In this document: piece by piece, positions 39,608-59,282 of the stretch
Layout: every line of letters starts with the position of its first letter
How positions within the stretch are numbered: position 1 is the first letter of the stretch
From: Acidimicrobiia bacterium
GTDB taxonomy: Bacteria; Actinomycetota; Acidimicrobiia; Spongiisociales; UBA11373
NCBI GenBank assembly: GCA_030584185.1
Contig: CP129495.1
Span: 1,789,469-1,853,468 of the forward strand
Reading direction: 5' to 3'
DNA: 64,000 bases
Notes under the pieces: generated by a model
Database searches by the model: none
The model's input: the letters and a program-made list of their open reading frames with translations, nothing else
Told to the model about the DNA's origin: nothing
Translations under genes and position numbers: made by a program

Positions 39608-41101
39608 TCATGCGTTCCGTGGCGCCGAGGCGCGGTGGAAGATGGCTGCGGCGGCGGCACCGAGACCAAGGAGCCACACCAGGGCGAGCGCGAGGCCGCC
39701 GAACTCGTCGAAGGTGGGAGTGAAGGCTCCGTCGATCAGGACCCGGACCGCGCCGTGGGCGGGCATCCAGACCGCCCAGGCGGGTGGAGCGGCGTCGAAC
39801 ATGATGTTCTGGGCGAGGCCGACGTCGAGGAAGGGGAGGAGGAACATCAGGTAGAGGCCGCCGAGTCTTCCGACGAGTGGCCCCAGGATCACCCCGATCA
39901 TGGCATACGTGATCGCGATGGTCAGGGTCGCTGCAGCGAAGGTGACCCACACCGATGGACTGAAGCTGAAGGCAGTGACGGCGAGGGAGACGGCACTGAC
40001 CAGTACGGCGGCGAGGGTGATGACGCCGAGGCGGGAGGCGAGGACTTCCCTCGGTTTGAACCCGGCGAGGACGAGGCGGCGGTCGGCTTCGGCGGAGCCG
40101 AGGACGACGAACAGTCCGGCGAGGCCGGCGAGGAAGGCGACGGTGATGGCGACCATGATCGCCCCGTGGACGTCGGTCATCGACAGGATGGAGATGCCTG
40201 CCTTTCCGCTCTCGACCAGCTCGACGGGCGCCGGGTCGTCGGGGGTGACCGCGATGGACAGGGTGATGAAGAAGAGGGGGAGCCCGACCAGCAGGACCCA
40301 GAGGGCGATGTTGCGCCGGTACTCCTTCCAGGCGTAGTCCAGCCCGGTCCGGGTTCGACCCCAACCGCCGATCGCCCCGGTGTGGTGCCCGTTTCGGACG
40401 GGCCGGGTGGTCACTAGAAGTGACAGGGCGGCGACGGCGAGCACACCGACCGTCCACGCCAGCGACGCTCCCATGTCGCCGAGAGGTCCGGCGTGGGTGG
40501 TGGTGGCGTCCAGCATGACCAGCGTGGGGAAATGGGAAGGGAAGAACCGGGTGAGGAGTGACTCGGTGCGTCCCATGGCCGGACCGAGGAACACGTCGAA
40601 CATCCAGATGAAGATGATCAGCAGCGACCCGTTGACTTCGGAACGGACCCAGGCGCCGACGGTGACCCCGATCGCCAGGTAGATGACGGCGAACATGATG
40701 GTTGAGCCGACGGCTCTCCCCGGGTCGGTGAGGTCGGTGCGGACTGCGAGGGCGAGCAGAGCTCCGGCCGACGCCACGACGGCCAGTACGGCTGAGGACG
40801 ACATGCGGGCGGCAACCACCCGGATGGTGTTCGACCCGGCGGCGGCGAGACGCCGGTCGGGGTCCCGGGAGCCGGTGACGTGGAAGAACCCGGCGACGCC
40901 GGCGAGGAACGCCGCGGCCCACCCGGCGGTGGCGGCTTCGAGCTGGCCAAGGCTGGATTCGCCGCCGAGGATGCGGGCGAAGTCTGCGATGGCACCGGCC
41001 GACAGGGCGACGAAGACGACGGGTACAACGGCGAGCAGCACGAGGTTGAGGGGCCGCCGGGCGTACTCGGTCAGGTAGCGCCAGGTGAGCACGCCGGTCA
41101 T
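39608..41101 (-). CDS. ABC-2-type transporter permease (polytopic)
   Basis: ATG at 41101 overlaps the ATPase stop; about 12 TM helices. Confidence 0.65.
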   Translation of the reverse strand: MTGVLTWRYLTEYARRPLNLVLLAVVPVVFVALSAGAIADFARILGGESSLGQLEAATAGWAAAFLAGVAGFFHVTGSRDPDRRLAAAGSNTIRVVAARMSSSAVLAVVASAGALLALAVRTDLTDPGRAVGSTIMFAVIYLAIGVTVGAWVRSEVNGSLLIIFIWMFDVFLGPAMGRTESLLTRFFPSHFPTLVMLDATTTHAGPLGDMGASLAWTVGVLAVAALSLLVTTRPVRNGHHTGAIGGWGRTRTGLDYAWKEYRRNIALWVLLVGLPLFFITLSIAVTPDDPAPVELVESGKAGISILSMTDVHGAIMVAITVAFLAGLAGLFVVLGSAEADRRLVLAGFKPREVLASRLGVITLAAVLVSAVSLAVTAFSFSPSVWVTFAAATLTIAITYAMIGVILGPLVGRLGGLYLMFLLPFLDVGLAQNIMFDAAPPAWAVWMPAHGAVRVLIDGAFTPTFDEFGGLALALVWLLGLGAAAAAIFHRASAPRNA

Positions 41102-41814
41102 CGCGGCACCGTCCTGCCGTCGACCAGGTCGTAGATCCGGTCGAACCGGTCGGCGTCGGTGATGAAATGACTGATGATCAACAGACTCCTGCCGCGATCG
41201 CGCCGTTCCCGGGTCAGCTCCCAGAACCGCTGGTAGGTGTCCCAGTCGAACCCGGCGTACGGCTCGTCGAGGAGGAGCAGGTCGGGGTCGGGCAGCAGCG
41301 CCAGACCGAGGTTGAGTTTGGCTCGGGTACCCCCGGACAGTTCCTCGACCCGCGCATCCCGCCATTCGCCGAACCCGAGCGTCTCATAGATCTCGTCCCG
41401 GGCATCGGCAACCCTTTGATCGGTCATGCCGTAGGCCCGGCCGAACAGCTCGAAATGCTCGTCGCAGGTGAGCCGTTCGTAGAGGATCGGGTCCTGGGGG
41501 CAGTAGCCGACGGAGCCCGACTTGGTGATTGAGCCTTGGTCACGATCGATGCTTCCGACGAGGATCTTCATCAGCGTCGACTTTCCCGAGCCGTTCTCCC
41601 CGACGAGTCCCACGATCTCCCCGGGTTGGAGTACCAGGGCGGCGCCGCGGAGGACGGGCAGGGAGCGTCTACGGGGCCACAGTCCCCGCCGGTACGTCTT
41701 GGCGATCTCGGAGGCGGCCAGGAGGTGGCCTACCGGATCGTGGACAACCTCTCTTCCGGGTCCGTCGTCGACGGCCTGGCTGGAGCCATCGGGCTGTTGG
41801 GTGATCGTCTCCAT
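41098..41814 (-). CDS. ABC transporter ATP-binding protein
   Basis: Walker A 'GENGSGKST', signature 'LSGGTRAKLNL', 'LLLDEP'. Confidence 0.85.
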   Translation of the reverse strand: METITQQPDGSSQAVDDGPGREVVHDPVGHLLAASEIAKTYRRGLWPRRRSLPVLRGAALVLQPGEIVGLVGENGSGKSTLMKILVGSIDRDQGSITKSGSVGYCPQDPILYERLTCDEHFELFGRAYGMTDQRVADARDEIYETLGFGEWRDARVEELSGGTRAKLNLGLALLPDPDLLLLDEPYAGFDWDTYQRFWELTRERRDRGRSLLIISHFITDADRFDRIYDLVDGRTVPR

Positions 41815-41850
41815 CGTCGACCTCGATTCCGATGCTGGTCTCATGTCACC

Positions 41851-42224: not shown

Positions 42225-42592
42225 GACACGACGACCTTGCCTCGAAGCATTCCCATCTGGCAGGCGAACTCGTATTCACCTGGCTCGGTGGGGGTGAACT
42301 CGATTGGGACGTTGGAGCCTTCGGGGAGGTCGGCGGAGACGCCGAAGGCGTCGAAGACGACCTTCTCCGAGCAGGGATCGGCCTCCTGGCGGTTGAAGAC
42401 CAGCTTGACCGGTCTGCCGGCTTCGACCCTGATGGTGTCGGGGGTATAACCGCCCTTGACGACGATGAACGCTTCCTGCTTGCCCCCGGCACCGACCGCA
42501 GCCGGCGCTCCTTGGGGTTTGGAGAGCCAGAAGTACCACACGATGAGCCCGATGAGGGCCAGACCGACCAGGTTGACGATGAGGACGGTCAT
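42221..42592 (-). CDS. cupredoxin-like copper-binding protein
   Basis: TM anchor; type-1 Cu ligands '...[10 protein letters not shown]'. Confidence 0.65.
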
Positions 42593-45063
42593 GCGGTTCC
42601 TCCTTTTCCACCAGACGGTTTCCAGCGGCGAAGCCGGTTGGCGTTGGAGACGACGGTGACCGAGGAGAAGGCCATCGCCGCCCCGGCGAGCATCGGGGAG
42701 AGCAGGATCCCGAAGAACGGGTAGAGAATCCCGGCGGCGACGGGGATACCGAGGGTGTTGTAGGCGAAGGCGCCCACCAGGTTCTGGTGGACGTTTCTGA
42801 TGGTTGCGTTGGACAGCTCGATGGCAGTGACGATCCCGCTGAGGCTGCCTTTGACCAGGGTGACGTCGCCGGATTCCATGGCGACGTCGGTGCCGGTGCC
42901 CATCGCCATCCCGACGTCGGCTTGGGCGAGGGCGGGGGCGTCGTTGATCCCGTCCCCGACCATGGCCACCTTCTTGCCTTCCGCTTGGAGCAGTCTGACC
43001 TGGGTTGCCTTGTCTTCGGGGAGGACCTCGGCGAGGACCCGGTCGATGCCGACCTGGCGGGCGATGGCTTCGGCGGTGCGTTGGTTGTCGCCGGTGATCA
43101 TCACCACCTGGAGGTCGAGTTCGTGGAGACGGCGGATGGCGGCGGCGGAGTCGTCTTTGACGGTGTCGGCGACGGCGATGGCTCCGGCCAGCTCGCCGTC
43201 GATACCGATGACCATGGCGGTCTTGCCTTCGTCGGCGAGTCGCGCCAGGGTCTCCTCTGAGGGGCCGGCGGCGATGCCGCGGTCGGCCATGAACTTCAGG
43301 TTGCCCAACACCACGTGCCGGCTGTTCACGGTGGCTTCGATGCCGTGGCCGGGAACCGCATCGAAGTCAGCGGCTTCGGCCACCTCGAGGTTCCGGGTTC
43401 GAGCGCCGGTGACGATCGCCTCACCGAGCGGGTGCTCAGAACCGGACTCGGCCGCCGCAGCGAGGGACAGCACCTCGCCTTCATCGAAGCCGTTGAAGGC
43501 GACGACGTCGGTGAGCGCCGGTTCACCCTTGGTGACGGTGCCGGTCTTGTCCAAAACCACGGTGTCTATCCGGTGGGCGGTTTCCAGGGCGTCGCCCGAC
43601 TTGATCAGGATCCCGTTCTCAGCTCCTTTGCCGATGCCGACCATGAGCGAGGTGGGAGTGGCCAGGCCGAGAGCGCATGGGCAGGCGATGACGAGGACGG
43701 TCACCGCGGTGATCACTGCATACACCAACGCCGGGGTCGGCCCGAAGGTGAACCACACCATGAAGGTGAGCACGGCGGCGATCATCACGGCTGGCACGAA
43801 GTAGGCGGCCACCTTGTCCACGGTCCGCTGGATCGGCGCCTTCGACCCTTGCGCGTCCCGCACCATTTCGATGATCTGGGCCAACATGGTGTCCCGACCC
43901 ACCCGGGTGGCTCGGAAACGGAAGAAGCCGGTCTTGTTGATGGTGGCGCCGATGACGGTGTCACCTTCGGACTTCTCCGACGGGATCGGTTCCCCGGTGA
44001 CCATCGACTCGTCCACCGCGGACACTCCGGAGACGACGATGCCGTCGACAGGGATCTTCTCCCCAGGCCGAACCACCACGATGTCGTCGACTGCGACCTG
44101 TTCGAAGGGGAGCTCCACTTCGGAGCCGTCGCGGAGCACCCGGGCGGTCTTTGCCTGGAGTCCGATGAGCTTCTTCAGCGCCTCCGAGGTGCGGGCCCGA
44201 GCCCGGATCTCCAGCGCCGATCCCAGGACGACGAAAGCGGTGACCACGGTGGTGACGTCGAAGAACACGTCACGCAGCTGCGCTTCGGGGAAGAACCCGG
44301 GGAACAACAACGCCACCGTCGAGTACAGCCACGCTGCGGAGATGCCGATGGCGATCAGCGTGTACATGTTCGCCGCCCGATGCTTGAAGGCGGCCCAGGC
44401 GCCAGTAAAGAACTGCGAACCGGAATAGATCATCACCGCCAGGGAGGCCACCGCCATCGCACCCCAGATCAGATCCAACTCGGACGACCCCTTCTCCGGC
44501 ACACCGGGGAAGATCTCCGGGTAGGAGAAGTAGATGATCGGCAGCGACACGATGGCGGCGAACCAGAACTTGCGGAGCAGACCGCGATACAGCCGCTCTC
44601 TCCCCTCCTGCTCGGCGTCGCCTGAATCGTCGGCGAGGGGGTGCGCCGAGTAGCCGGCCGCCGACACCGCTGTCATCAGAGCCTCAGAGGTGACCGGCCC
44701 TCCCACGTCGACGGTGGCCTCGTCGGTGGCCAGGTTGACCCGAGCGTCGACGACGCCGGGGACCGACGTCAGCGCCGACTCCACCCTGGAGACACAGGAG
44801 GCGCAGGTCATCCCCTCGACGCCGAGGCGTACCGTCGAAGTCGCCACTCCACCGGATCGGCCCGGCACCGCCAAGTGTTCGGCTTCTTCGTCGTCCTCGT
44901 CGCCCTCGCCGTCCGACGCTTCACCGCCGCCGGGGGTGGTGTAACGCTGCGGGTCGGCGAGGAAGCTCTGCCGGCAGTGCTCGGAACAGAACCCGAAGTC
45001 CGGGTACCCATCCACCCGTAGCGCGTCTGGTCCGACGGTCATCCCACATACCGGGTCTCGCAT
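42589..45063 (-). CDS. copA: copper-translocating P-type ATPase (CopA/CtpA-like) with N-terminal YHS/TRASH plus HMA domains
   Basis: 'DPVCGM' TRASH, '[12 protein letters not shown]' HMA, 'CPC' TM motif, [15 protein letters not shown]. Confidence 0.9.
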
Positions 45064-45101
45064 CTCGACTCCTTTCAGTAGCGGTGCCATGTCACAACAC
45101 C

Positions 45102-45133
45102 ACCGTACGCCTTCCAGTCGACTGGAATGTCAA
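45102..45133 (-). promoter_or_regulatory. MerR/CueR-type promoter-operator: TTGACA-[TTCCAGTCGACTGGAAGGC]-GTACGGT
   Basis: perfect 16-bp palindrome TTCCAGTCGACTGGAA between copA and the merR-family gene. Confidence 0.65.
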
Positions 45134-45152: not shown

Positions 45153-45620
45153 ATGCAGATCGGAGAACTGGCGCGACGCACCGGTGTTCCCACCAAGACG
45201 ATCCGGTACTACGAGGAGATCGGTGTGCTCCCCGAACCCGAACGCGACCACAACGACTACCGGAACTACCCCGACGACGCGGTCGATCGGCTCGAGTTCA
45301 TCCGGGAGGCTCAGGCCACGGGGCTGACGCTCACCGAGATCGGCTCCATCCTCGACCTGCGTAGCCAGGGTGAAGCTACCTGCCGACACGTCGTCGACCT
45401 GTTGGAGCGCCACCTCGACGCCCTCGACCGCCACATCACCTCCCTGCGGCGGACTCGCCGCAAACTGGCGTCGCTCACCGAACGGGCCCGCAACCTCGAC
45501 CCGGCCGACTGTCGGGACCCGAACCGGTGCCAGACCATCTCTGGCGCCGATGTCGCCGAGCTGGGATCGGTGAAGACGGGACGCCACCTGCACGCCGCCC
45601 CATCCGGCCACCACCACTGA
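45153..45620 (+). CDS. MerR-family (CueR-like) transcriptional regulator
   Basis: 'MQIGELARRTGVPTKTIRYYEEIGVLPEPERDHNDYRNY' HTH; Cys-containing C-terminus. Confidence 0.8.
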   Translation: MQIGELARRTGVPTKTIRYYEEIGVLPEPERDHNDYRNYPDDAVDRLEFIREAQATGLTLTEIGSILDLRSQGEATCRHVVDLLERHLDALDRHITSLRRTRRKLASLTERARNLDPADCRDPNRCQTISGADVAELGSVKTGRHLHAAPSGHHH

Positions 45621-47131: not shown

Positions 47132-47430
47132 CCCTCCCCGACCGAAGCGGCTCGTTGGGTGAGGCGACGCTCCAACTTCTTGAGGCTGATCCGACCGAAC
47201 CCGAAGAACTCGCCGTCGACGATGACGAGCGGCGGGAACCCTGCCCGGTGGGTCACCATGAGCGCCAGACCTTCGTCTGATGACAGGTCCACGGTGGTCA
47301 CCGCAAGCGGCACCGTTTCACCAAGCGTGTCGAGAACCTGTTGTGCGTGGTCGCAGTAGTGACAGCCGGCGGCGGTGACCACGACCACGCTGACCGGTTC
47401 GGATTCAGACACCAGCGGCGACTCCGGCAT
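47128..47430 (-). CDS. glutaredoxin/thioredoxin-like protein
   Basis: 'VVVTAAGCHYCD' CxxC. Confidence 0.6.
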   Translation of the reverse strand: MPESPLVSESEPVSVVVVTAAGCHYCDHAQQVLDTLGETVPLAVTTVDLSSDEGLALMVTHRAGFPPLVIVDGEFFGFGRISLKKLERRLTQRAASVGEG

Positions 47431-47734
47431 GCGTCGCCTCGTCGTGGCACCGATGTCCGGCTCGGCCGGAGGTCGGAGCGGACCCGAAGGTGGCGGCGAG
47501 CAGTTCGTCGACGACGTCGTCGACCCGGCCCTCAGCGACCGCTTCGGGGACGCAGCCTCGCAGGTGCGCTTCGAGGATCTGGCGGCGCACACTCTCGAGG
47601 GCGCCTTGCACCGCGGAGAGCTGGTGGAGCACGTCGATGCAGTAGCGGTCGTCGTCGACCATGCGGATCACCCCTTCGAGGTGACCGACGGCAGACCGGA
47701 GGCGGAACGCCACCGCGGTGGACTCCGCTCTCAT
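47405..47734 (-). CDS. csoR: CsoR/RcnR-family metal-sensing repressor
   Basis: 'RLRSAVGHLEGVIRMVDDDRYCIDVLHQLSAVQGALESV' with conserved Cys/His. Confidence 0.8.
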   Translation of the reverse strand: MRAESTAVAFRLRSAVGHLEGVIRMVDDDRYCIDVLHQLSAVQGALESVRRQILEAHLRGCVPEAVAEGRVDDVVDELLAATFGSAPTSGRAGHRCHDEATHAGVAAGV

Positions 47735-47967
47735 CGCCTTATCTCCGGATCTTCGACGAGCAGGGCGCGCCGGGCCTCGAACTCGTCACGGTCGATCTCG
47801 CCTGCGGCGAAGCGACGCTCCAAGATGTCGAGCGCACCAGAGCGGCTCTCCGAGGGGCGGGTCCTCGTGGAGCGGATCGCCCACACCGCCAGGGCGACGA
47901 CCGCACCCCAGAAGACGACCATCATCGTCCAACCGAAGAACCCCATCGTGTTCCAGTCACACCACAT
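47731..47967 (-). CDS. SHOCT-domain small membrane protein
   Basis: TM helix plus 'LDILERRFAAGEIDRDEFEARRALL'. Confidence 0.65.
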   Translation of the reverse strand: MWCDWNTMGFFGWTMMVVFWGAVVALAVWAIRSTRTRPSESRSGALDILERRFAAGEIDRDEFEARRALLVEDPEIRR

Positions 47968-48067: not shown

Positions 48068-48559
48068 TCAGTCGTCGCTCGGGGTCTCCTGCCAGGTGAC
48101 CTGCCATTGGAACGCCCGTTCTTCGGGGCCCCACGTGGTCTTCAGGTACTCGACGATAGAGAGCACCTGCTCGACGCTGAGATCAGAGAACGTCGGCATC
48201 CGACTCTGCTCGAAGCCCGAACCGTTGCGGACGATGTCGACGAGCAGCCGGTCGGAGTGGTGCCAGGTGTGACCCGTCGAGTCGTGCGGCGGTGGCGGAT
48301 ATGACCCGTCCGGATTCGGGGTCTTCCAGTGGGGATCACCCGCCAGGTCGGCACCGTGGCAGGAGGCGCAGCGTTCGGCGTAGAGGACCTCTCCGACCGC
48401 GACACGGTCGCTGTCGAGGTCGGGCGGTGCCGGAGCGTTGCCGAGATCGCCGATCCTGGGCGGAGTCTGGCCGCTGCTGCTGGCAGCGTCCGAGCATGCC
48501 GAGCTCAGCGCCGCCAGCACGGCGATCAGGGCAACGCCCTTACGGAGCGCAGTCACGAC
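48068..48559 (-). CDS. c-type cytochrome lipoprotein
   Basis: lipobox 'ALSSACS'; heme motif 'CASCH'. Confidence 0.7.
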   Translation of the reverse strand, partial: VVTALRKGVALIAVLAALSSACSDAASSSGQTPPRIGDLGNAPAPPDLDSDRVAVGEVLYAERCASCHGADLAGDPHWKTPNPDGSYPPPPHDSTGHTWHHSDRLLVDIVRNGSGFEQSRMPTFSDLSVEQVLSIVEYLKTTWGPEERAFQWQVTWQETPSDD

Positions 48560-49050
48560 CCGACTGTGACCGTGCCCTTCATCCCGGCCGCGTAGTGACC
48601 TGGCTGGTGGCATCCGATGAGAACCGGCCCCTCCTCGGTGAATCGCCATGTCAGCTCTTTGGTTTCGCCGGCGGCGATGGCGACAGCGTTGGCCTCGTCG
48701 TCCATCATCATCCCGCCCATCTCCGCCATTTCCTCGTCGTGTTCGTCTTGAGTGGCTTGGTCTCCTAGCGTGAAGTCGTGGGGAACCTGGCCCGCGTTGA
48801 CGATCCTGAAGGTGATCGTCTCGCCGACGTCGACGGTCACGGCGTCCGGCGTGAACCGGAAGTCGTCGCTGGCGACGATCTCCACGACTCGGTCGGCGTC
48901 GCCGGCATCGGCCGGCTCCCCGAACCCGAACTCCATCGGATGGTCATCGCTGATTGTGGTGGTGGTGGCGGCCCCTGAATCGCTGCAGGCAGCCAGAAGT
49001 AATGCTGCTGCGACGGCGATCGGCGCAGCCTGACGAAGACTGAAAAACAT
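48553..49050 (-). CDS. cupredoxin (plastocyanin-like) copper-binding lipoprotein
   Basis: lipobox 'LLAACS'; type-1 Cu ligands 'VPHDF', 'IGCHQPGHYAAGM'. Confidence 0.75.
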   Translation of the reverse strand: MFFSLRQAAPIAVAAALLLAACSDSGAATTTTISDDHPMEFGFGEPADAGDADRVVEIVASDDFRFTPDAVTVDVGETITFRIVNAGQVPHDFTLGDQATQDEHDEEMAEMGGMMMDDEANAVAIAAGETKELTWRFTEEGPVLIGCHQPGHYAAGMKGTVTVGS

Positions 49051-49100
49051 GGGCGTCCTCCTGGACTCTCCGGTGAATGAACCGCGGGAGAAGGCCAGGC

Positions 49101-49445
49101 TCAGGTTCGAAGGACGCAGAGTTCGAAGAGTCGGAGCCTGCCCGACGAAACCCAGGCGGCGTCGATCGCTCCTGGGATCGTCGCGGACATCGCGGCTCGA
49201 GGGTGGTGTCGTGGCCGGGACCGGCGCCCGCCATCGACCATGGCGACGATGCTCATCACGAAGACACAAAGGCCGACCAGCCCGTGGATCCCCTCCGAAT
49301 CCACGGGCGAGGCGTTGTGATGCGCCGACCCGACGATATCGGCGGCGGCAGCGTCGAGTCCGTGCATGAGGACCACACCGGCGACGGCGAGGGCTGCCAG
49401 AAAGGTCGTCCACGCAAGGCGTCGCGGTTCGGTGATCGTCCTCAT
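49101..49445 (-). CDS. hypothetical membrane protein
   Basis: 2-3 TM helices; in the copper cluster. Confidence 0.4.
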   Translation of the reverse strand: MRTITEPRRLAWTTFLAALAVAGVVLMHGLDAAAADIVGSAHHNASPVDSEGIHGLVGLCVFVMSIVAMVDGGRRSRPRHHPRAAMSATIPGAIDAAWVSSGRLRLFELCVLRT

Positions 49446-49537
49446 CGCTTGGCGGCTCACTGTATCGACCGGCATAGGGCACCGCCATCGCCTGGCGACC
49501 AGTGCGGTCGGCTGTCCGACGGCCGGCAGCGACCGCG

Positions 49538-50650
49538 CTAGGACCGCTGCGGGCGCGATCCTTGAGGAACCGTCAGGACGAACGTCGAACCGTGCCCGAT
49601 GCCAGGGGAGGATGCAGTGACATCACCGCCTTGGAGACGGGCGAGGCTGCGGGCAATGGTGAGCCCGATCCCGGTGCCGCCGACGGCGGTGCGGTCGACC
49701 CGGTAGAAACGATCGAACACCAGCTCGAGCTGGTCCGCGGAGAGGCCGCGACCGGTGTCGCTCACCTCGATATGAGCGGTATCCGCCGCCCGAGCCGCCG
49801 TGATCCGGACTCGACCTCCCGGCGGGGTGTAGGTCAGGGCGTTGCCTACGAGGTTGGTCAACACCTGCGCCATCCTGTCCCGGTCCACCAACACCGGCAA
49901 TGACGGGCCCGCTTCGATGTCGAGGTGGACTTCCTGAGCATTGAACTGGGGGCGAAGCCGTTCGGCGGCGTCGCGGGCCAGCTGCGCCAGATCGGCTTCT
50001 TCGAGGTGGAGCTCGACCCGGCCTTCCTCGGCCCGGGACAGTGCCGAGAGGTCGTCGGCGAGTCGTTCCATGCGACGCGCTTCGCCGATGGCGGAGGCCA
50101 ACGTTTCGGTGTCGGGTTCGAACACGCCGTCGAGGAGACCCTCCAGGTAGCCCGTGAGTGTGGCCACCGGCGTGCGCAGTTCATGAGCCACCTCGGAGAC
50201 GAGGCGAAGGCGGCGCTGCTCGGTCGCCTCGAGGGCGGCGGCGAGCTCGTTGACGTCGCTGGCGAGCGCGGCGAGTTCCTCCTCCTCGGGCAAGGGGACC
50301 CGCTCGTGGTAGGAGCCGCCGGCGAGCCGTCGAGCCACGCGTCTCACGTCTTCCAGGGGCCGCAGCAGCCGCAGAGCGGCGAAGGTCGAGACGGCCACGG
50401 CCACCGCACCGCTGATGATGGCCGCCACCACCAGTGCCCGGTTGAACGCTGCGGTGATCCCCTCCTCGAGCTGGCCCGCTTCTGCTGCCGACATGCCACC
50501 CATCATGTGGTTCATGGAACGCAGGTGATCGTGGATGAAGACATCCCCGAGGCTGCGACCGGCGACGAGCAACACCACCACCCCAACCGCGACCACGGCC
50601 AGGTGTGAGAGGAGGAGCCGACTTCGAAGCGTGCCGAACGGTCGTCTCAT
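49538..50650 (-). CDS. sensor histidine kinase (CopS/CusS-like)
   Basis: H-box 'VAHELRTPVATL', N/G1/G2 boxes. Confidence 0.85.
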   Translation of the reverse strand: MRRPFGTLRSRLLLSHLAVVAVGVVVLLVAGRSLGDVFIHDHLRSMNHMMGGMSAAEAGQLEEGITAAFNRALVVAAIISGAVAVAVSTFAALRLLRPLEDVRRVARRLAGGSYHERVPLPEEEELAALASDVNELAAALEATEQRRLRLVSEVAHELRTPVATLTGYLEGLLDGVFEPDTETLASAIGEARRMERLADDLSALSRAEEGRVELHLEEADLAQLARDAAERLRPQFNAQEVHLDIEAGPSLPVLVDRDRMAQVLTNLVGNALTYTPPGGRVRITAARAADTAHIEVSDTGRGLSADQLELVFDRFYRVDRTAVGGTGIGLTIARSLARLQGGDVTASSPGIGHGSTFVLTVPQGSRPQRS

Positions 50651-51348
50651 CGTGGTTCTGCCACGAACTTGTATCCGACTCCGCGGACCGTAGCGATGAA
50701 CCGCGGGTTGGAGGCGTCGTCACTTAGCGCCTTGCGAAGGTTTCCGACGTGGACGTCGACCACGCGATCGGCTCCGAAGTAATCCCAGCCCCACACCCGC
50801 TCCAACAGCTGAGCACGAGTGAACACTCGTCCCGGCGCTGACGCCAGTGCGGCGAGGAGGTCGAACTCGAGGGTGCTCACCCCGACGGTCCCCGATTCGG
50901 TGACGACCTGGCGACCCGCCAGGTCGACGCTGATCCCGTCGAATTCCAGCACATCGGCAGCGCTGCGGGTCTGTCCGCCACGTCGCAGCACCGCACGGAT
51001 CCGTGCGACCAGCTCCCGGGGACTGAACGGCTTGGTGACGTAGTCGTCGGCGCCGATACTGAGACCCACGACGCGGTCCACCTCCTCGGTACGTGCGGTG
51101 AGCATGATCACTGGAACGTCGGAGTGGCGGCGGATCTCTTGGAGCACCTCGAATCCGTCGATGCCCGGCATGGCGACGTCGAGCACGACCAGATCAGGGG
51201 TCGAACCGCCCAATCGGGACAACGCATCGCGTCCATCGCTCGCCTCGACGACCTCGAAGCCCTCGGCTTGCAGATAGCGGCGAACCATCCGCCTCAGTTC
51301 AGGCTCGTCGTCGACAAGGAGAATCCGTCGCAGATCCACCTCAGCCAT
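50647..51348 (-). CDS. OmpR-family response regulator (CopR/CusR-like)
   Basis: receiver 'ILLVDDEP...VLDVAMPG' plus winged-helix 'TVRGVGYKF'. Confidence 0.9.
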   Translation of the reverse strand: MAEVDLRRILLVDDEPELRRMVRRYLQAEGFEVVEASDGRDALSRLGGSTPDLVVLDVAMPGIDGFEVLQEIRRHSDVPVIMLTARTEEVDRVVGLSIGADDYVTKPFSPRELVARIRAVLRRGGQTRSAADVLEFDGISVDLAGRQVVTESGTVGVSTLEFDLLAALASAPGRVFTRAQLLERVWGWDYFGADRVVDVHVGNLRKALSDDASNPRFIATVRGVGYKFVAEPR

Positions 51349-51396
51349 GGTAAAGAGGCACCCGGCCGGCACACGTGTCCGGCCGTCGCACGGCGA

Positions 51397-51714
51397 TCAC
51401 CTACCTGGCGATCCGCCCATCATCCCGTTGCCGCCCATCATGTTCCCTGAGCCCATCATGTTCCCTGAGCCCATCATCCCAAGGTGAGCCGACATCGAGC
51501 TGTGCATGGCCGATTGGTCCGCAGACGCCATCCAGTCATGGTGCTGCGCCGAACCCATCCCGTCGGCCATGTCGTCGTGCGGCATAACCGCGGAGTCGTG
51601 GTACGGGCATGCCACCTCCGGGCCGGGTTGCGGGTCTTGCGCCAAGGCCGGGACGGCAGCCAGGACGGCCACCCCGAGCGCAGCAGCGACCACAGCGATC
51701 GTGATTCGTTTCAT
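51397..51714 (-). CDS. secreted Met/His-rich copper-binding protein
   Basis: signal peptide; 'MGSGNMMGSGNMMGGNGMMGG'; 18-nt tandem DNA repeat at 51426-51470. Confidence 0.6.
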   Translation of the reverse strand: MKRITIAVVAAALGVAVLAAVPALAQDPQPGPEVACPYHDSAVMPHDDMADGMGSAQHHDWMASADQSAMHSSMSAHLGMMGSGNMMGSGNMMGGNGMMGGSPGR

Positions 51715-51740: not shown

Positions 51741-51950
51741 TCATCGACCGGCCAGTTCTCTGCGGCGCGCAGTGAACTCGTCGGCGTCGACCTCGCCGCG
51801 GGCAAAGCGCTCTTCGAGGATGCTCAACGCGCTGGGTGGGCTCTGCGGTCGGTCGCTGCCCTCTCGCACAGCCCAGACCACGAGCAGGATCACTCCGACC
51901 CAGAACAACGCCATCCACAGAAATCCGAATCCTTCGAAACCCCACATCAT
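51741..51950 (-). CDS. SHOCT-domain small membrane protein
   Basis: TM helix plus 'LSILEERFARGEVDADEFTARRREL'. Confidence 0.65.
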   Translation of the reverse strand: MMWGFEGFGFLWMALFWVGVILLVVWAVREGSDRPQSPPSALSILEERFARGEVDADEFTARRRELAGR

Positions 51951-52064: not shown

Positions 52065-52097
52065 TTGACATTCCACCCGACTGGAAGGAGTAGAAGT
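52065..52097 (+). promoter_or_regulatory. MerR/CueR-type promoter: TTGACA-[TTCCACCCGACTGGAAGGA]-GTAGAAGT
   Basis: 19-bp spacer with imperfect dyad about 70 bp upstream of the second P-type ATPase. Confidence 0.6.
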
Positions 52098-52164: not shown

Positions 52165-54513
52165 ATGACCCACACCCACACCCACACCCAGGAACGCCAC
52201 GACACGGTGGTCCTCCAGGTCGGAGGGATGCAGTTCGCTTCCGAGAAGAACAAGGTCGAGTCGTTCCTCGGCCGCATGAACGGGGTGGTCGCCGTCGACG
52301 CCAACCCGGTGGCGCAGACAGCGACGGTCACGTTCGATCCTTCTGTCGCGACCGCCGAGCAGCTGCGGGAGTGTGTCATCGAATGCGGATACCACTGCGC
52401 CGGCGAGTCGGTCCCCGCCCACGTCTGCTACGAGGAGGCGCCCCAGGCCCATCCCGGCGAGGAACGATCACCCCATGCGGTGATGGGCCACGGCAGCCAC
52501 GGCGAGATGTCGATGGACGCCATGGTCACCGACATGCGCAACCGCTTCCTGGTGGCGTTGCTCTTCACCATCCCCATCGTCTTGTACTCACCATTGGGAC
52601 GCGACACCCTCGGCTTCACTCTGGGCACCCCGTTCGGACTGCGCGACGACGTGTTCGCCCTGCTCCTCAGCCTTCCGGTGGTCTTCTGGGCGGGATGGAT
52701 CTTCTTCGACGGCGCTGCCGCCGCGCTGCGTCGTCGCACCCTCGACATGATGGTTCTCGTCGCCGTCGCCATCGGCGCCGGATGGCTCTACTCCCTGGCG
52801 GTCACCCTCACCGGAGGGGGCGAGGTGTTCTACGAGGCGGCGGCGATGCTCGCCGTGTTCGTCCTCCTCGGCCACTGGTTCGAGATGCGGGCCCGGGGCG
52901 GCGCCAACGACGCCATCCGAACCCTGATGAGCCTGGCACCACCAATGGCCCTCGTGATCCGCGACGGAGCCGAGGTCGAGATCCCGACTGCCGACGTCGT
53001 CGTGGGTGACCTGCTGTTGATCCGACCCGGTGCCCGCATCCCGGTTGACGGCGCTGTCGTCGAAGGCGAATCCGAGGTCGACGAGTCGATGGTCACCGGC
53101 GAGAGCCTCCCCGTGGCCAAACGTACCGGGAGCGAGGTGGTTGGCGCGACCATCAACACCACAGGCACCCTTCGAGTCGAAGCCACCCGGGTTGGTGCGG
53201 ACACCGCCCTCGCCCAGATCGTCGATCTCGTCCAGGAGGCACAGAACTCCAAAGCGCCCGGACAGCGCCTCGCCGACCGCGCCGCCTTCTGGCTCGTCCT
53301 CGTCGCCCTGCTCGGTGGTGCCCTCACCCTCGCCGGCTGGATGATCGCCGGCGAGGACTTCTCCACCGCGCTCCTGTTTGCCATCACCGTGGTGGTGATC
53401 ACCTGCCCAGACGCCCTCGGCCTGGCCACCCCCACCGCGGTCATGGTCGGGACCGGCATGGGCGCCCGCCGCGGGGTGCTGTTCAAGAACGCCACCGCCA
53501 TCGAGACCGCCGCCCGCATCGACACCGTGGTCATGGACAAGACCGGCACCCTCACCAAAGGCGAACCGGAGGTGACCGACTTCATCACCATCGGCCAACC
53601 ATCTGATGCGTTGCGGCTCGTCGCAGCAGTAGAACGAGAGTCGGAACACCCGCTCGCCCGGGCCGTCGTCCGCTACGCCGAAACCCAGGGCGTCGACGCC
53701 GCCGCGGCGGAACGTTTCGAAAACGTCCCCGGTCACGGTGCCATCGCCACCGTCGACGGACACCGAGTGGCGGTGGGCAACGTCCGGTTCATGGAGCGAG
53801 AAGGCGTCCACCTCGGCAGCCTCGGTACGAGCCGCGCGGAGATCGCCGCCGGTGGCCGCACCGCGGTGCTCGCCGCCGTCGACGGGGCGGCAGTCGCGGT
53901 GATCGGCCTCGCCGACGCGCCCCGGGACACGTCCGCTGAGGCGATTCGCGACCTCCACGATCTCGGTATCGAGGTGGTCATGCTCACCGGCGACAACCAG
54001 GCCACCGCCGACCGTATCGCCGCCCAGCTCGGCATCGACACCGTCATCGCCGAGGTCCTTCCCGAAGACAAGGCCGCGAAGATCAGCGAGCTCCAAGCCC
54101 AGGGCAAGACGGTGGCCATGGTCGGGGACGGAGTCAACGATGCACCGGCCCTGGCCACGGCCGACCTCGGTATCGCCATCGGAGCCGGGACCGACGTCGC
54201 CATCGAGACCGCCGACCTCGTCCTGATGAGATCCGACCCGCTCGATGTGCCCATCGCCATCCGTATCGGCCGAGGCACCCTGCGCAAGATGCGTCAGAAC
54301 CTGGGATGGGCCGTCGGTTACAACAGCCTGGCTCTTCCTATCGCCGCCGGCCTCCTCTACCCGTCCCTCGGTGTGGTGCTCCGACCCGAGTGGGCCGCCC
54401 TCTCCATGTCCGGCTCCAGCTTCCTCGTCGCCACCAACGCCGTACTCCTCAAACGACTCCGTCTCCCCAGCGAGGGAGACAGCGCGAAACCAACCAGTGG
54501 CGGCCCAACGTGA
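52165..54513 (+). CDS. copper P1B-type ATPase with His-rich N-terminus and atypical 'CPD' transmembrane motif (CopB-like)
   Basis: 'MTHTHTHTQ', HMA-like fold lacking CxxC ('[10 protein letters not shown]'), '[12 protein letters not shown]', [15 protein letters not shown]. Confidence 0.8.
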
Positions 54514-54617: not shown

Positions 54618-54998
54618 ATGGCTGCTGTCGTCGTGCTGACGTTGTCCGTGGTGCTGGCGGCGTGTGGGGGCGACAGCTCAGAAGGAGGCATTCCGACCCA
54701 GGATCCCGACCTGGTGGCCGCCGGTGCCGACCTCTACGCCGCCAACTGCGCCGAATGCCACGGAACGGACCTGCGAGGCACCGACAAGGGCCCGTCACAT
54801 CTCTCCGAGGTGTACGAACCAAACCACCACGCCGACGGGGCCTTCCTCTTTGCCGTCCAGGCCGGTTCTCGCGCCCACCATTGGCGTTTCGGCGACATGC
54901 CCCCCGTCGAAGGGCTCTCCACCGAAGACGTCGAGGCCATCGTCGCCTTCGTCCGTGAACAGCAACGCATCGAAGGCTTCGAGCCATATCCACCCTGA
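54618..54998 (+). CDS. c-type cytochrome lipoprotein
   Basis: lipobox 'VLAACGG'; 'CAECH'. Confidence 0.7.
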   Translation: MAAVVVLTLSVVLAACGGDSSEGGIPTQDPDLVAAGADLYAANCAECHGTDLRGTDKGPSHLSEVYEPNHHADGAFLFAVQAGSRAHHWRFGDMPPVEGLSTEDVEAIVAFVREQQRIEGFEPYPP

Positions 54999-55034: not shown

Positions 55035-55421
55035 TCAATGGGCCCGGCCCAGCTCCTTCGAGACTCCAAGCTGGATTGTGTTGAGATGGGTCAGCGCATT
55101 GGCGTACAGCGGCATCCGCAGCGGGGCACAACACCCCACCTGGAGGCGACCGATCGCCGCACCGACCTCCTCGGCGCCCCGCAGCGCCCGACCGAGCGAT
55201 CCCTGGTCCTCGGAGTCGAGGTCGCGACGAACCTCGATCAACGCCTGCTCGATGGCGGCCATGCGCGGACTGCGTTCGGGGTCACAGCACATCTTGTGCA
55301 AGCGGTCAACCACGGTCTGGCACTGGGCGATAGCCGATCGTGCGTCGACGAGCGCTGAATCTGACACGCTGCGAGGGTACGACACGCGGAGGCTCACCGG
55401 ATCGCAGGTTCCACTCGGCAT
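55035..55421 (-). CDS. hypothetical Cys-pair protein, possibly the frameshifted C-terminal part of a MerR-family gene
   Basis: overlaps the MerR-HTH ORF in another frame; contains 'CC' pairs. Confidence 0.35.
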   Translation of the reverse strand: MPSGTCDPVSLRVSYPRSVSDSALVDARSAIAQCQTVVDRLHKMCCDPERSPRMAAIEQALIEVRRDLDSEDQGSLGRALRGAEEVGAAIGRLQVGCCAPLRMPLYANALTHLNTIQLGVSKELGRAH

Positions 55422-55600
55422 CGCGGCAGGACGAGCTGCTCCATCGCGCGAGAGGGTGCGATGGGATGGTCAAGACGCGAGATGACGCGAACCAGGGCGG
55501 TCGGCTTCGGAACCACCACGCCCTCTTTCTCGTAGAAACGCAGCGCTGACACCGTGAACCCGGTGTCTCGGGCCGCTTCGGAGATCTTCAAACCATCCAT
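55394..55600 (-). CDS. MerR-family HTH fragment
   Basis: 'LKISEAARDTGFTVSALRFYEKEGVV' HTH only; no dimerisation or metal-binding region in frame. Confidence 0.45.
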   Translation of the reverse strand: MDGLKISEAARDTGFTVSALRFYEKEGVVVPKPTALVRVISRLDHPIAPSRAMEQLVLPRCRVEPAIR

Positions 55601-55635
55601 ACCAGCCACCCTAAACTCTCGACTCGGGTCGAAGG

Positions 55636-56391
55636 TCAAGTGGCTTTCTCAACGGTCGCCCATCGCCCAGGGCAGCAGTCACAGTCCCGCCAGATCCGCT
55701 GGGGCGGCTCACCAGCGAGCAGTCGGTCCGCCTCGTCTCGGACCAGTATCCCGATAAGTCTGCCCTGCGGTGTTGTGACGATCACATTGGGTGCGTTTCG
55801 TCGGTGCATGCGTTCCACCAGTGGCTGTAGCTGCTGGTCTGGTCGGACGGTGCTCGGACCGGGCTCCATCACCTCGACGGCCCGCATGTCTCCGTCGGTG
55901 TCGAGTTCTTTCCCGCGGATGCGGCCGACGGCCATCCCGTCACAGTCGAGGACCACACACACATCCCAGCCTGCGTCGACCACGGTGGATCTGATCTGAC
56001 CGATGGTGTCGTCGAGCTGGCAAGTGGGCACGTCGGATCGGGTGGCGTCGATGACACGCTGGCCGAGCTCCGCGTTGCCTTCGATAGCCAGTCCGGCTGC
56101 CTTCCAGTCTGCGATGCCATCCACATAGTCGAAAACCCGAAAGCCGATAGCTTCGAGCCGGCACGCGGCTCGTGGTGACATGTCTCACAATCCGTCGTGG
56201 CAGTAGACCACCACCGGTCGGGATATGTCGAGGACGCCTGCAGCCTTGGCGGTGAGCTGTTTCAACGGAATATTCACCGCATCAGGGAGGTGAGCCTCGG
56301 TGTAATCGGGTTCGGGGAGAACGTCGACGATCTGGGCGTCCTCAGCTTCGATGAGATCCAGCAGTTCGGTGCGGTCGATACCGGTGACCAT
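55636..56391 (-). pseudogene. rhodanese-CBS domain gene interrupted by an in-frame TGA (56185-56187)
   Basis: the two track ORFs are in the same frame and separated only by TGA-GAC; the stop falls inside the rhodanese active-site loop ('VVVYCHDGL*DMSPRAA'). Confidence 0.55.
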
Positions 56392-57459: not shown

Positions 57460-57861
57460 ATGCAGATAGGTGAAGTCGCCCAAAAGATCGGTATGGCCAC
57501 TTCGGCGATCCGCTTCTACGAAGAGAAAGGTCTCATCCCTGAACCGGATCGCACCGATTCCGGCTATCGGGACTATGACCCGGCAGTAGTGGACCGGATC
57601 CGCTTCATCCGAGCCGGTCAGACAGTCGGTCTCACTCTCCGCGAACTGAACCAGGTTCTGCAGATCCGAGACCGAGGCGAGTCGCCTTGTCGACATGTCG
57701 CAGACTTGTTGGACACCAGAATTCACGACGTTGACCAGCGGATCGAAGAGCTTCGACGTCTGCGGCGCGACTTGACCGCCATGCGACGAAGCGCCAGCCG
57801 CCTCGACCCGGCCGACTGTCCACCCGAGGGCGTTTGTCGGATCGTCACTGAGACCGGGTGA
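57460..57861 (+). CDS. merR: MerR-family transcriptional regulator
   Basis: 'MQIGEVAQKIGMATSAIRFYEEKGLIPEPDRTDSGYRDY'; C-terminal Cys residues. Confidence 0.8.
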   Translation: MQIGEVAQKIGMATSAIRFYEEKGLIPEPDRTDSGYRDYDPAVVDRIRFIRAGQTVGLTLRELNQVLQIRDRGESPCRHVADLLDTRIHDVDQRIEELRRLRRDLTAMRRSASRLDPADCPPEGVCRIVTETG

Positions 57862-58082
57862 TCGGGACGCGCCGAGAACGAGAAGGATGCACCCGTGATC
57901 CCGTTCGCCGGCGGGCGAAGGCGGCATAGTGATGACAACGAGATTCTCGGTATCACCGGAACCCTGTTCGACGGCCTCTACGCCTGGCTGCACCGACGGC
58001 ACGGGTGACAGACACGCTTGATTGACAAATGCGAGCCGGTGGCAACTTCTCTGCGCCATTGGCCGTAGTTACCGTCCGTCTC

Positions 58083-59100
58083 ATGAGCGACGGCGCGCAA
58101 CCCGACCATGGTGGAGAACGTAGGTCGCATGGTCTGTGGCATCGACTCGTCCATCTGTTGAGCCACGACCATGACCACGGTTCGGCGCACAAGGTGTTGG
58201 ATGCGGGAGCCGAAGGCATCCGCGCCACCAAGATCTCGCTGGTTGGTCTCGGACTTACGGCTCTCTTGCAGGCGCTCGTTGTTGTTCTCAGCGGCTCGGT
58301 TGCCCTGGCTTCCGACACCCTCCACAATCTCGGCGACGCCCTAACCGCAATCCCCCTCTGGATCGCCTTCTCCCTGGGCAGACGCAGCCCCACCCGCAGC
58401 TACACCTACGGCTACCACCGCGCCGAAGATGTCGCCGGAGTCGTCATCGTCCTCGCCATCGGCGCCTCCGCCGCGCTCATCATCTGGGAATCGGTGCAGC
58501 GTCTCCTCGAGCCGCGACTCATCGATTACATCCCCTGGGTGATCGCAGCCGGTCTCATCGGCGCCGCCGGAAACGAGCTTGTAGCCCGATACAGGATCCG
58601 AGTGGGCAGACGGATCGGATCAGAGGCGCTGGTCGCCGACGGTCAGCACGCCCGCACCGACGCCCTCACCTCGCTCACCGTCGTGGTCGCCGGAATCGGC
58701 GCCGCCTTCGGAGCAGCCTGGGTGGACCCTGTTGCCGGGCTCGTTGTCGCCCTGGTGATCCTGCGGCTGTTGTTCCGATCGGCACGGTCGATCACGCGGC
58801 GTCTCCTCGATGCTGTCGACCCGGAGCTGGTCGACGGGACCGAGAAGATCATCGCCGGGGTGGATGGGGTGCTAGCCGTTACCGATCTGAGGCTTCGTTG
58901 GCACGGACACCAGCTTCACGTTTCCGCGTGTGTGGCCGTCGATGCCGACCTCACCGTGGCCGCCTGGCCACGAAACCGCTCACGAAGTCGAACACGCACT
59001 CCACCACGCCTACAGCTTCCCGGTAATCACAATGATCCACATCGACCCAGAGGGCCAGACGAGCGCCCACGACGCCACCGCCCACCACCGGCATTGAGTA
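58083..59100 (+). pseudogene. cation diffusion facilitator with frameshift near 58960
   Basis: CDF motifs up to 'VAVDADLTVA'; the conserved C-terminus 'GHETAHEVEHALHHAY...HIDPEG' continues in the +1 frame to TGA at 59098-59100. Confidence 0.6.
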
Positions 59101-59282
59101 GGTTCCATCGCACATCCATCGCACAAGAGAGTGCGATGGGACCGTCAAGAACGCGAAATGACGCGAAGCGAAAATGCCGTCTGAACAGGCGTTTCGCGGA
59201 TTTGCCCTGGTCAGTGGACACCCCGGACTCGGGCTCATAACCCGAAGGTCGCGGGTTCAAATCCCGCCCCCGCTACTACCGA
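59101..59282. repeat. ~130-nt island-boundary repeat (copy 3) plus 46-nt tRNA-Met 3' fragment (59231-59276)
   Basis: 59231-59276 is identical to tRNA positions 26990-27035; upstream part about 80% identical to 30781-30910. Confidence 0.8.

Follow-up and report, generated by a model that had tools for sequence, protein, structure and literature searches.

The window analysed here is a 64,000-nucleotide stretch of DNA from an Acidimicrobiia bacterium (contig CP129495.1, positions 1,789,469 to 1,853,468), which encodes a P-type ATPase with the signature Cys-Pro-Asp (CPD) in its fourth membrane helix (M4). The pump is a member of P-type ATPase class 1B (P1B), as is evident from its motifs, its eight membrane helices, and the xPx sequence at the M4 break. 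We consider it fairly probable that the pump is a functional exporter of the CPD subfamily, which most likely transports Cu(I), and perhaps Ag(I), in the copper-stress response alongside a canonical CopA encoded 7 kb away. Three independent lines of contextual evidence point to copper(I) stress. We infer that Cu(I) is the most likely substrate because the pump shares a MerR-type operator with CopA, homologous genes are preceded by CsoR boxes, and copper genes recur among their neighbors.

Architecture and family of the CPD pump

The gene and the elements of its product are arranged as follows.

52165..54513, forward strand: gene of the CPD-type P1B ATPase, 782 residues (open reading frame, translation, Pfam and NCBIfam matches)
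52201..52383, forward strand: HMA-like domain, residues 13-73, CxxC pair absent (G21-M-Q-F24-A-S-E27) (Pfam and AlphaFold2 (AF2))
52384..52428, forward strand: Cys/His cluster C74-G-Y-H77-C78-x-G-x3-P-x-H86-x-C88, directly after the HMA-like domain
52474..52527, forward strand: Met/His motif H104..M107-G-H-G-x-H112-x2-M115-S-M117-x2-M120, just before helix MA (DMRNRF)
52870..52887, forward strand: GHWFEM at the cytoplasmic end of helix M2, residues 236-241, hallmark of the CopB-type clade
53404..53412, forward strand: M4 signature C414-P415-D416 (TGC CCA GAC) (sequence, alignment, homologs)
53536..53550, forward strand: phosphorylation motif D458-KTGT, invariant in the close-family alignment A1 (sequence)
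54319..54339, forward strand: M5 motif Y719-N720-(x)4-P725 (GYNSLALP) (sequence, joint alignment)
54406..54420, forward strand: M6 motif M748-S-G-S-S752, CopA-like MxxSS and not the MSxST of CopB

The reading frame is uninterrupted by internal stops, and the catalytic motifs T311-GES, D458-KTGT, S493-EHP, and G654-DGVNDAP are all present and invariant or near-invariant across alignment A1. Pfam recognizes an HMA domain at residues 16-77, where 36.6 bits exceed the cutoff of 24.8, as well as the E1-E2_ATPase and Hydrolase (HAD) domains. The protein matches the NCBIfam models TIGR01511, the Cu P1B ATPases, with 600 bits and TIGR01525 with 613 bits against a cutoff of 346. Its best solved relatives are the Cu+ pumps LpCopA (3rfu, E value 1e-164) and AfCopA, with about 45% identity. 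The copper-type ligands Y719 and N720 in M5 and M748, S751, and S752 in M6 are retained, as is the counterpart of the CopA entry methionine, M195. E240 and D371 presumably occupy the aligned positions of the two acidic CopA entry residues.

The AF2 model of the pump was built from 42 homologs and has a mean predicted local distance difference test (pLDDT) score of 74.9. It contains eight membrane helices (residues 117-140, 161-189, 195-216, 223-255, 365-394, 399-413/416-435, 694-727, and 741-763). Helix M4 is interrupted between residues 413 and 416, at C414-P-D416. Residues 13-73 fold as β-α-β-β-α, a block with pLDDT values of 65-85, and residues 75-114 are disordered. The top Foldseek matches of the model are the Cu-pump entries 4bbj, 7r0g, and 3rfu.

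The M4 motif, residues 412-419, reads ITCPDALG, neither CPC nor CPH, as an earlier note made from the DNA letters had stated. The alignment bears this out, since CPD superposes exactly on the CPC of both LpCopA and the in-window CopA. The DNA at 53395-53433 begins GTG ATC ACC TGC CCA GAC GCC, with GAC as the codon of D416. As a single base change would turn GAC (Asp) into CAC (His), CPD could in principle be a sequencing error, or it could mark a decayed, inactive pump. Either is exceedingly improbable and is excluded by conservation: the open reading frame is intact, its catalytic motifs are invariant, and a near-identical protein (P0001) occurs in an independent data set. In a search of a 5.8-billion-protein collection, the best 120 homologs, with 69-100% identity, all carry CPD, and the closest of them also keep GGMQFASEK. 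Because of these 120 homologs, and because CPD pumps form a clade spanning many phyla even when alignment column 416 is left out, CPD is neither a chance occurrence nor a sequencing error. The source names of the best homologs point to Acidimicrobiia and other Actinomycetota, such as Lentzea, Amycolatopsis, Actinomadura, and Nonomuraea.

The family extends well beyond the actinobacteria. A scan of one genome per species with a degenerate DNA pattern detected at least 120 loci, and at least 10 phyla are represented among the 80 titles listed. Actinomycetota and Pseudomonadota account for 27 titles each, Chloroflexota for 10, Patescibacteria for 6, Gemmatimonadota, Armatimonadota, and Dormibacterota for 2 each, and Acidobacteriota, Bacteroidota, and Myxococcota for 1 each, with 1 unclassified. 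A plasmid collection contains 42 records with a relative of the pump at 60-80% identity. Carriers include Rhodococcus jostii RHA1 pRHL3, Nocardia farcinica pNF1, Mycolicibacterium gilvum pMSPYR101, and Streptomyces plasmids; where annotated, the plasmid relatives are always called heavy metal translocating P-type ATPase.

Placement of the pump was studied by database search and by neighbour-joining trees of 625 core columns with 100 bootstraps. In a search of 1.84 billion cluster representatives, CPD proteins rank first, followed by one CPH protein (49% identity) and then by CPC proteins. CPD and CPH pumps form one clade in 98 of 100 bootstraps of the first tree. After removal of column 416, the joint clade is found in 95 of 100 bootstraps, the CPD clade (83 sequences) in 94, and the CPH clade in 100. 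The apparent nesting of CPH pumps inside the CPD clade in the first tree shrank in the second to a single outlier, P0124 (CPDALALATP), which groups with the CPH pumps. The comparison with the P1B-1 and P1B-3 families that the earlier note had proposed separates CPD pumps as a clade of their own, and this clade is widespread and, in the neighbour-joining trees, monophyletic and sister to the CPH (CopB) pumps.

Individual residues agree with the trees. At 22 positions, a residue at least 85% conserved in CPD pumps is rare in CPC pumps, and CPH pumps have the same residue at 16 of them. GHWxEM is present in 81 of 83 CPD pumps and in all 119 Bacillota CPH pumps, and H237 occurs in 0% of the compared CPC pumps. 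The 119 Bacillota CopB-type proteins also uniformly carry CPH, S(D/N)PxD, and the M6 sequence MS[LFVIM]ST. GHWxEM, S(D/N)PxD, and a His/Met-rich stretch before the DMRNRF/DFKKRF helix are common to CPD and CPH pumps and absent from CPC pumps. The description of the pump as CopB-like is right, because the CPD and CPH pumps stand together against the CPC pumps with a support of 95 of 100.

The N-terminal region is composed of the HMA-like domain, the Cys/His cluster, and the Met/His motif. The GMQFASE sequence of the domain aligns on GMTCAMC of the AfCopA HMA domain and GMTCASC of the in-window CopA, and the two metal-binding Cys residues are therefore replaced by F24 and E27. The HMA-like domain is present in 60 of 83 diverse CPD members and GMxCxxC in only 1 of the 83, so the HMA fold without CxxC noted earlier is a family trait. 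Residues C74, G75, Y76, C78, G80, P84, and C88 of the cluster are invariant in alignment A1, and the full motif CG(Y/F)HCxGxxxPxHxC occurs in 43 of the 83 members. Carriers are found among alpha-, beta-, and gamma-proteobacteria, Chloroflexota, and Gemmatimonadota, and include the Nitrobacter and Xanthobacter plasmid genes. The motif MGHGxHxxMSMxxM, within residues 104-121, is kept in the close family, with MGH[GASD] in 55 of 83 members, and aligns with the His-rich stretch of CPH pumps in the joint alignment. The earlier note had emphasized a His-rich N-terminus. The sequence MTHTHTHTQ (residues 1-9) is indeed present, with four His in the first 12 residues, but homologs vary freely at this tip, and the conserved His/Met element is the one at residues 104-121. 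In CPD pumps of Patescibacteria (loci L036, L044, and L075) and of part of the Chloroflexota, CPMHPE-type metal-binding N-termini replace the HMA-like domain.

Operator shared with CopA and copper-linked neighborhoods

The promoter of the pump shares its core with two other promoters in the window, one of which precedes copA.

52065..52096, forward strand: MerR-type promoter of the pump, -35 TTGACA, 20-bp spacer, -10-like TAGAAG
52065-52088, forward strand: operator core copy 1, upstream of the CPD pump
45110..45133, reverse strand: operator core copy 2, 19 nt upstream of the copA start codon
41859..41882, reverse strand: operator core copy 3, upstream of an ABC-transporter ATPase gene (start 41844)
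42589..45090, reverse strand: canonical CopA with a YHS domain, an HMA domain with GMTCASC, CPC, YN, and MAFSS
45153..45593, forward strand: MerR-family metal regulator, 146 residues, with C77, C120, and C126, divergent from copA (tblastn and translation)

The spacer of the pump promoter holds the dyad TTCCA-N6-TGGAA(GG), TTCCAcCCGACTGGAAGG. A dyad in an over-long spacer is a hallmark of MerR-type activation. The 24-nt core TTGACNTTCCANNCGACTGGAAGG occurs in three copies in the window and in none of 100 shuffles. Each copy has the proper orientation relative to a gene that begins shortly downstream, and its spacer is 20 bp long. A simple scan for sigma-70 promoters, covering spacers of 16-18 nt, found none; the MerR-type site has 20 bp. 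The conserved blocks nearer the SHOCT gene (51741..51950) contain no regular direct repeat.

The operator is retained in other genomes. In the orthologous locus L124, which is 83% identical, it is conserved though the flanks diverge. The same kind of site, TTGACC-TTACATCCGGATGGAAGG, precedes the CPD pump of L103, where a close homolog of the 45153..45593 regulator is encoded directly upstream of the pump. In L125, related sites lie upstream of both the CPD pump and the CopA of that genome. Since they have the same operator, the in-window CopA is probably co-regulated with the CPD pump. The MerR-family protein is a candidate activator of the three operator-bearing promoters, as judged from its position and conservation. 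Its NCBIfam scores are all sub-threshold (CadR/PbrR 102 bits, MerR 92, CueR 90), so that no assignment to the CueR, CadR, ZntR, or MerR families above threshold was obtained.

The third operator copy belongs to an ABC-2 exporter operon composed of an ATPase gene (41098..41844, reverse strand) and a permease gene (39608..41365, reverse strand) with the same operator and promoter core. Because the operator is the same as that of the two P1B pumps, the small metal regulon may include an exporter that is not of the P-type. The start codons of copA and the ABC-ATPase gene follow the operator core by 19 and 14 nt, respectively, and their transcripts are probably leaderless or nearly so; the leader of the CPD pump is about 60 nt long.

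Actinobacterial relatives provide a second regulatory connection to copper. In 11 actinobacterial loci, including Nocardia, Actinomadura, Kineosporia, Solirubrobacterales, and Gaiellales, the CPD pump or the operon to which it belongs is directly preceded by boxes such as ATACCCCCTAGGGGTAT and ATACCCCCAAGGGGTAT, which match the streptomycete CsoR consensus ATATACCCCTNAGGGGTATAT and the copZA operators of S. lividans (PMC3902906). The density of the boxes there is 1.97 per 10 kb vs 0.31 for the loci overall, a six-fold enrichment.

Gene neighborhoods were counted in 120 loci from the pattern scan. HMA proteins or CopA pumps are neighbors in 26 loci, two-component systems in 13, CsoR-family genes in 11, multicopper oxidases and SHOCT proteins in 9 each, and RND pumps in 6. 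Eight of the CsoR-family genes, outside Patescibacteria, carry the C-H-C signature. The island on the RHA1 plasmid is a typical CPD-pump neighborhood. In the patescibacterial loci L036, L044, and L075, the CsoR/RcnR-family genes beside the pump have C-H-H and not C-H-C, and for this reason the sensed metal may differ in these lineages.

Three further groupings recur. The CPD pump lies beside an MFS transporter gene, in many cases together with a phosphoketolase gene, in Actinomycetota and Alphaproteobacteria, frequently on plasmids, as in L127 (M. gilvum pMSPYR101), L128 (N. hamburgensis plasmid 2), and L129 (X. autotrophicus pXAUT01), and in 9 loci of the neighborhood count; this suggests a cassette moving between phyla. 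An ICMT/PEMT-like membrane methyltransferase gene lies near the pump in 11 of the loci L004-L123 (for example, L075 4933..5586), always on the same strand, and in about half of these loci it is immediately downstream, with a median gap of 3 nt. A conserved protein of about 130 residues without known function (FMPHMHD, CEM) is encoded beside the pump, on the same strand, in L007, L009, L028, L074, and L107. These are proteobacterial loci and one Acidobacteriota locus, and in four of the five the gene is upstream of the pump.

The pump gene of the window is surrounded by the following genes.

47408..47734 and 47731..47967, reverse strand: CsoR/RicR-like repressor (C-H-C), then a second SHOCT-domain membrane protein
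48553..49488, reverse strand: cupredoxin, 311 residues, best NCBIfam match CopI (sub-threshold), downstream of the two-component genes on the same strand
49538..51372, reverse strand: OmpR-type response regulator (50647..51372) and HAMP histidine kinase (49538..50650)
51397..51714, reverse strand: secreted Met/His-rich protein, 105 residues, with a signal peptide and a MMGSGNMMGSGNMMGG tail (translation)
51741..51950, reverse strand: SHOCT-domain small membrane protein (Pfam SHOCT), first gene of the divergent operon
54618..54998, forward strand: lipoprotein cytochrome c, 126 residues, lipobox LAAC, CAECH, 105 nt downstream of the pump on the same strand

Much of this arrangement is kept in L124 and in the contig encoding protein P0002. 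Both have the SHOCT gene at the same position, a small gene at the position of 51397..51714, syntenic two-component genes, and the pair of a CsoR/RicR-like repressor and a second SHOCT protein. The window also encodes a redoxin and contains two SHOCT genes in total, which add to its copper-linked content along with the CopI-like cupredoxin, the CsoR/RicR-like repressor, and the secreted Met/His-rich protein. The two-component system was considered as a regulator of the pump and found no direct support, the conserved element in the pump promoter being the MerR-type dyad. The cytochrome c was rejected as a conserved partner, since it is present only in the closest relatives, such as the P0002 contig, and not family-wide.

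Two more regulator-like loci lie downstream of the pump. A second MerR gene (57460..57861, forward strand) directly precedes a CDF transporter gene (58029..59240, forward strand). Its product is 46% identical to the 45153..45593 regulator, with a Cys at the equivalent helix position and a Cx5C loop, and it is not associated with a copy of the 24-nt operator. An 81-residue open reading frame with a MerR helix-turn-helix only (55394..55639, reverse strand) and one of 128 residues (55035..55421, reverse strand) overlap by 28 nt in different frames, and may represent either one regulator gene with a frameshift or a pair of distinct genes. In the 128-residue product there are two Cys-Cys pairs (HKMCCDPE, QVGCCAPL), and it matches no family; in the P0002 contig, too, the cytochrome c gene is followed by a gene for 128 residues without a family match.

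Transported ion and function

The substrate specificity, which the earlier note called unclear, is narrowed by the regulatory evidence to the copper(I) stress response, with Cu(I) as the putative substrate. We propose that Cu(I) would reach the membrane entry platform of the pump and be passed to a site at which C414, M748, and the D416 carboxylate contribute roughly one Cys sulfur, one Met sulfur, and one Asp oxygen. The oxygen ligand from D416 would stand in for the thiolate of CopA and the imidazole of CopB. Phosphorylation of D458 would precede release of the ion on the outer side. In the HMA-like domain, which has lost its Cys pair, loop 1 would no longer bind metal, and the CGYHCxGxxxPxHxC cluster, together with MGHGxHxxMSMxxM beside the entry platform, may constitute an alternative cytosolic module for metal capture or regulation. 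The pump would be switched on together with copA by the 45153..45593 regulator, through the dyad in the over-long 20-bp spacer.

Several points weigh against this proposal. A carboxylate is an unusual and poor Cu(I) ligand and is better suited to harder, divalent ions. If two copper pumps stand side by side with one operator, the question arises why both are kept. The regulator is paired with the operator by position and conservation only, and its residue 77 is Cys, in contrast to the Ser of CueR; its best match, below threshold, is CadR/PbrR and not CueR, so the metal that it senses may not be copper. Other types of regulators, namely MerR types with a Cys at the same position and C-H-H CsoR/RcnR-family genes, occur near several proteobacterial and patescibacterial members. 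No report on transport, binding, or genetics of any CPD pump was found in the searchable literature. The trees are of the neighbour-joining type only, and their CPH sample is small.

We regard it as unlikely that the exchange of Cys or His for Asp has instead retuned the pump to harder, divalent cations and made it a complement to CopA; candidates would be Cu(II), Zn(II), Cd(II), Pb(II), Co(II), and Ni(II). D416 is at the position after the M4 proline where P2-type pumps carry the gating glutamate (PEGL). The cysteines C77, C120, and C126 of the regulator, with a Cys at the position used by sensors of divalent ions and Hg, fit such a substrate, as does its best score with CadR/PbrR. MerR genes with a Cys at the same position are found near the pump in L006, L035, and L103, the CDF transporter of the window is accompanied by a second such MerR, and CopA and the CPD pump are frequently kept side by side. 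However, YN in M5 and MxxSS in M6 are of the Cu(I) type, the Zn/Cd/Pb-type M4 sequence CPCALVISTP is absent, and no match of M5 and M6 to the usual Zn/Cd/Pb or Co signatures was seen. A canonical Cu(I)-type CopA is under the same operator, and the boxes preceding 11 homologs belong to CsoR, a Cu(I)-specific sensor system. Furthermore, the sister CopB pumps, long assumed to transport Cu(II), are now regarded as Cu(I) pumps, which makes the 'Cu(II)/CopB-type' wording of the earlier note outdated (PMC10654040).

A role other than bulk detoxification is conceivable, though quite improbable. The pump would then be a slow, high-affinity Cu(I) transporter similar to CopA2/FixI, which supplies extracytoplasmic cuproproteins such as the CopI-like cupredoxin, oxidases, and a multicopper oxidase. 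A second pump next to a resistance-type CopA would suit this role, as would the lipoprotein cytochrome c gene after the pump, here and in the P0002 contig, the cupredoxin gene of the island, and the multicopper oxidase genes that recur as neighbors. However, cytochrome c and cupredoxin are not conserved neighbors across the family, and the promoter common with CopA is of the stress type. The genes are frequently plasmid-borne and part of metal-resistance islands that also hold RND, CsoR, and DUF305 genes, which suggests a role in resistance.

We also entertain, as a rather doubtful idea, that CPD pumps constitute a distinct functional class of P1B ATPases, in which the M4 Asp alters cargo or coupling and the cluster and the Cys-less HMA fold form a new cytosolic metal-sensing module. 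The cargo could be divalent, Cu(II) for instance; alternatively, Cu(I) export could be strictly coupled to protons moving the opposite way through the carboxylate. The glutamate of the PEGL motif in P2-type pumps offers a comparison for counter-transport through a carboxylate.

Export of Cu(I) in the copper-stress response remains our preferred interpretation. The classification of P1B pumps, and with it the prediction of their substrates, relies mainly on the three-residue M4 motif, a rule that has failed once already, as CopB carries Cu+ and not Cu2+. For the CPD family, with members in Rhodococcus, Nocardia, Mycolicibacterium, Streptomyces, and Ralstonia, the searchable literature assigns no substrate. 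The substrate of one CPD member would tell whether Cys, His, and Asp are interchangeable as Cu(I) ligands or whether Asp switches selectivity, and its assignment would correct the annotation of many genomes. The shared MerR-type operator is a ready-made reporter for the inducing metal.

Comparison with known systems

The pump promoter resembles that of E. coli copA, which is activated by CueR, a MerR-type protein, through the operator CCTTCC-N7-GGAAGG in a 19-bp spacer. In both, a dyad, here (C)CTTCCA-N6-TGGAAGG, lies between the -35 and -10 elements in an over-long spacer, and the regulator gene is divergent from copA. In the window, however, the spacer has 20 bp and the arms of the dyad are one base further apart. 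The candidate regulator differs from CueR in having Cys, not Ser, at position 77 and in its Cx5C loop.

The CPD subtype has been named before, and the gene studied here is one member of a large, widespread, and often plasmid-borne family. Cubillas et al. 2017 defined in silico a subtype with a 'novel CPD motif', named P1B-3a (clade VIc), from plasmid genes of Xanthobacter autotrophicus Py2, Nitrobacter hamburgensis X14, and Bradyrhizobium sp. BTAi1 (PMC5552934). The defining features were a signature helix with CPD, the motifs YN(x)4P and MSGSS, a low number of N-terminal His, and a length about 80 residues greater than that of CopB (PMC5552934), all of which the present pump shares. Its N-terminal domain matches the three founders in tblastn searches (N. 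hamburgensis, E value 9e-16; X. autotrophicus, 5e-12; Bradyrhizobium BTAi1, 2e-14). Over the full length, identity is 51% to the Nitrobacter and 53% to the Xanthobacter protein; the Bradyrhizobium gene was matched by the N-terminal domain only. The Nitrobacter and Xanthobacter proteins also carry GHWxEM (GHWLEM), SDPxD, CGFHCxGxxxPxHxC, and MGHG. The 2017 study was based on three rhizobial sequences only, gave no function, and described neither the HMA-like domain without its Cys pair nor the Cys/His cluster (PMC5552934), whereas the present pump is from an Acidimicrobiia-like actinobacterium, as judged by its best hits, with a regulatory setting of its own. The suggestion of the earlier note that the pump might represent an uncharacterized P1B subgroup holds in that no characterized CPD homolog was found in the searchable literature, but the subgroup already has a name, P1B-3a (PMC5552934). 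Literature searches aimed at the CPD motif found only Cubillas 2017; other matches to 'CPD' are unrelated (for example, critical point drying). New here are the sister relationship to CopB with numerical support, the HMA domain lacking its Cys pair throughout the family, along with the CGxHCxGxxxPxHxC and MGHG motifs, and the regulatory link to copper through the MerR-type operator common with CopA and the CsoR boxes elsewhere.

Among canonical copper pumps, CopA (P1B-1, CPC; LpCopA 3rfu/4bbj, AfCopA 7r0g, and the in-window CopA) shares with the CPD pump the eight-helix topology, YN, MxxSS, the counterparts of the entry residues, and the N-terminal HMA fold; the in-window CopA also has the same operator. 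The CPD pump differs by Asp in place of the second Cys of CPC, by an HMA domain lacking both Cys, and by the 22 conserved positions that set CPD apart from CPC pumps.

CopB (cg3281) of Corynebacterium glutamicum, which is induced by copper and belongs to the CopRS regulon (PMC3140484), was considered as a candidate for a characterized CPD pump; no Corynebacterium is among the plasmid matches listed for the N-terminal domain of the CPD pump. CopB pumps (P1B-3, CPH; for example, those of Enterococcus hirae, Archaeoglobus fulgidus, and Sphaerobacter thermophilus) have in common with the CPD pump GHWxEM, S(D/N)PxD, the same residue at 16 of the 22 positions, the His/Met-rich stretch immediately before helix MA, and YN in M5. 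The CPD pump differs from CopB by Asp in place of His in M4 and by MSGSS in place of MSxST in M6. It also possesses the HMA-like domain and the Cys/His cluster, whereas the examined CPH pumps have only a His-rich tail and no Pfam HMA domain.

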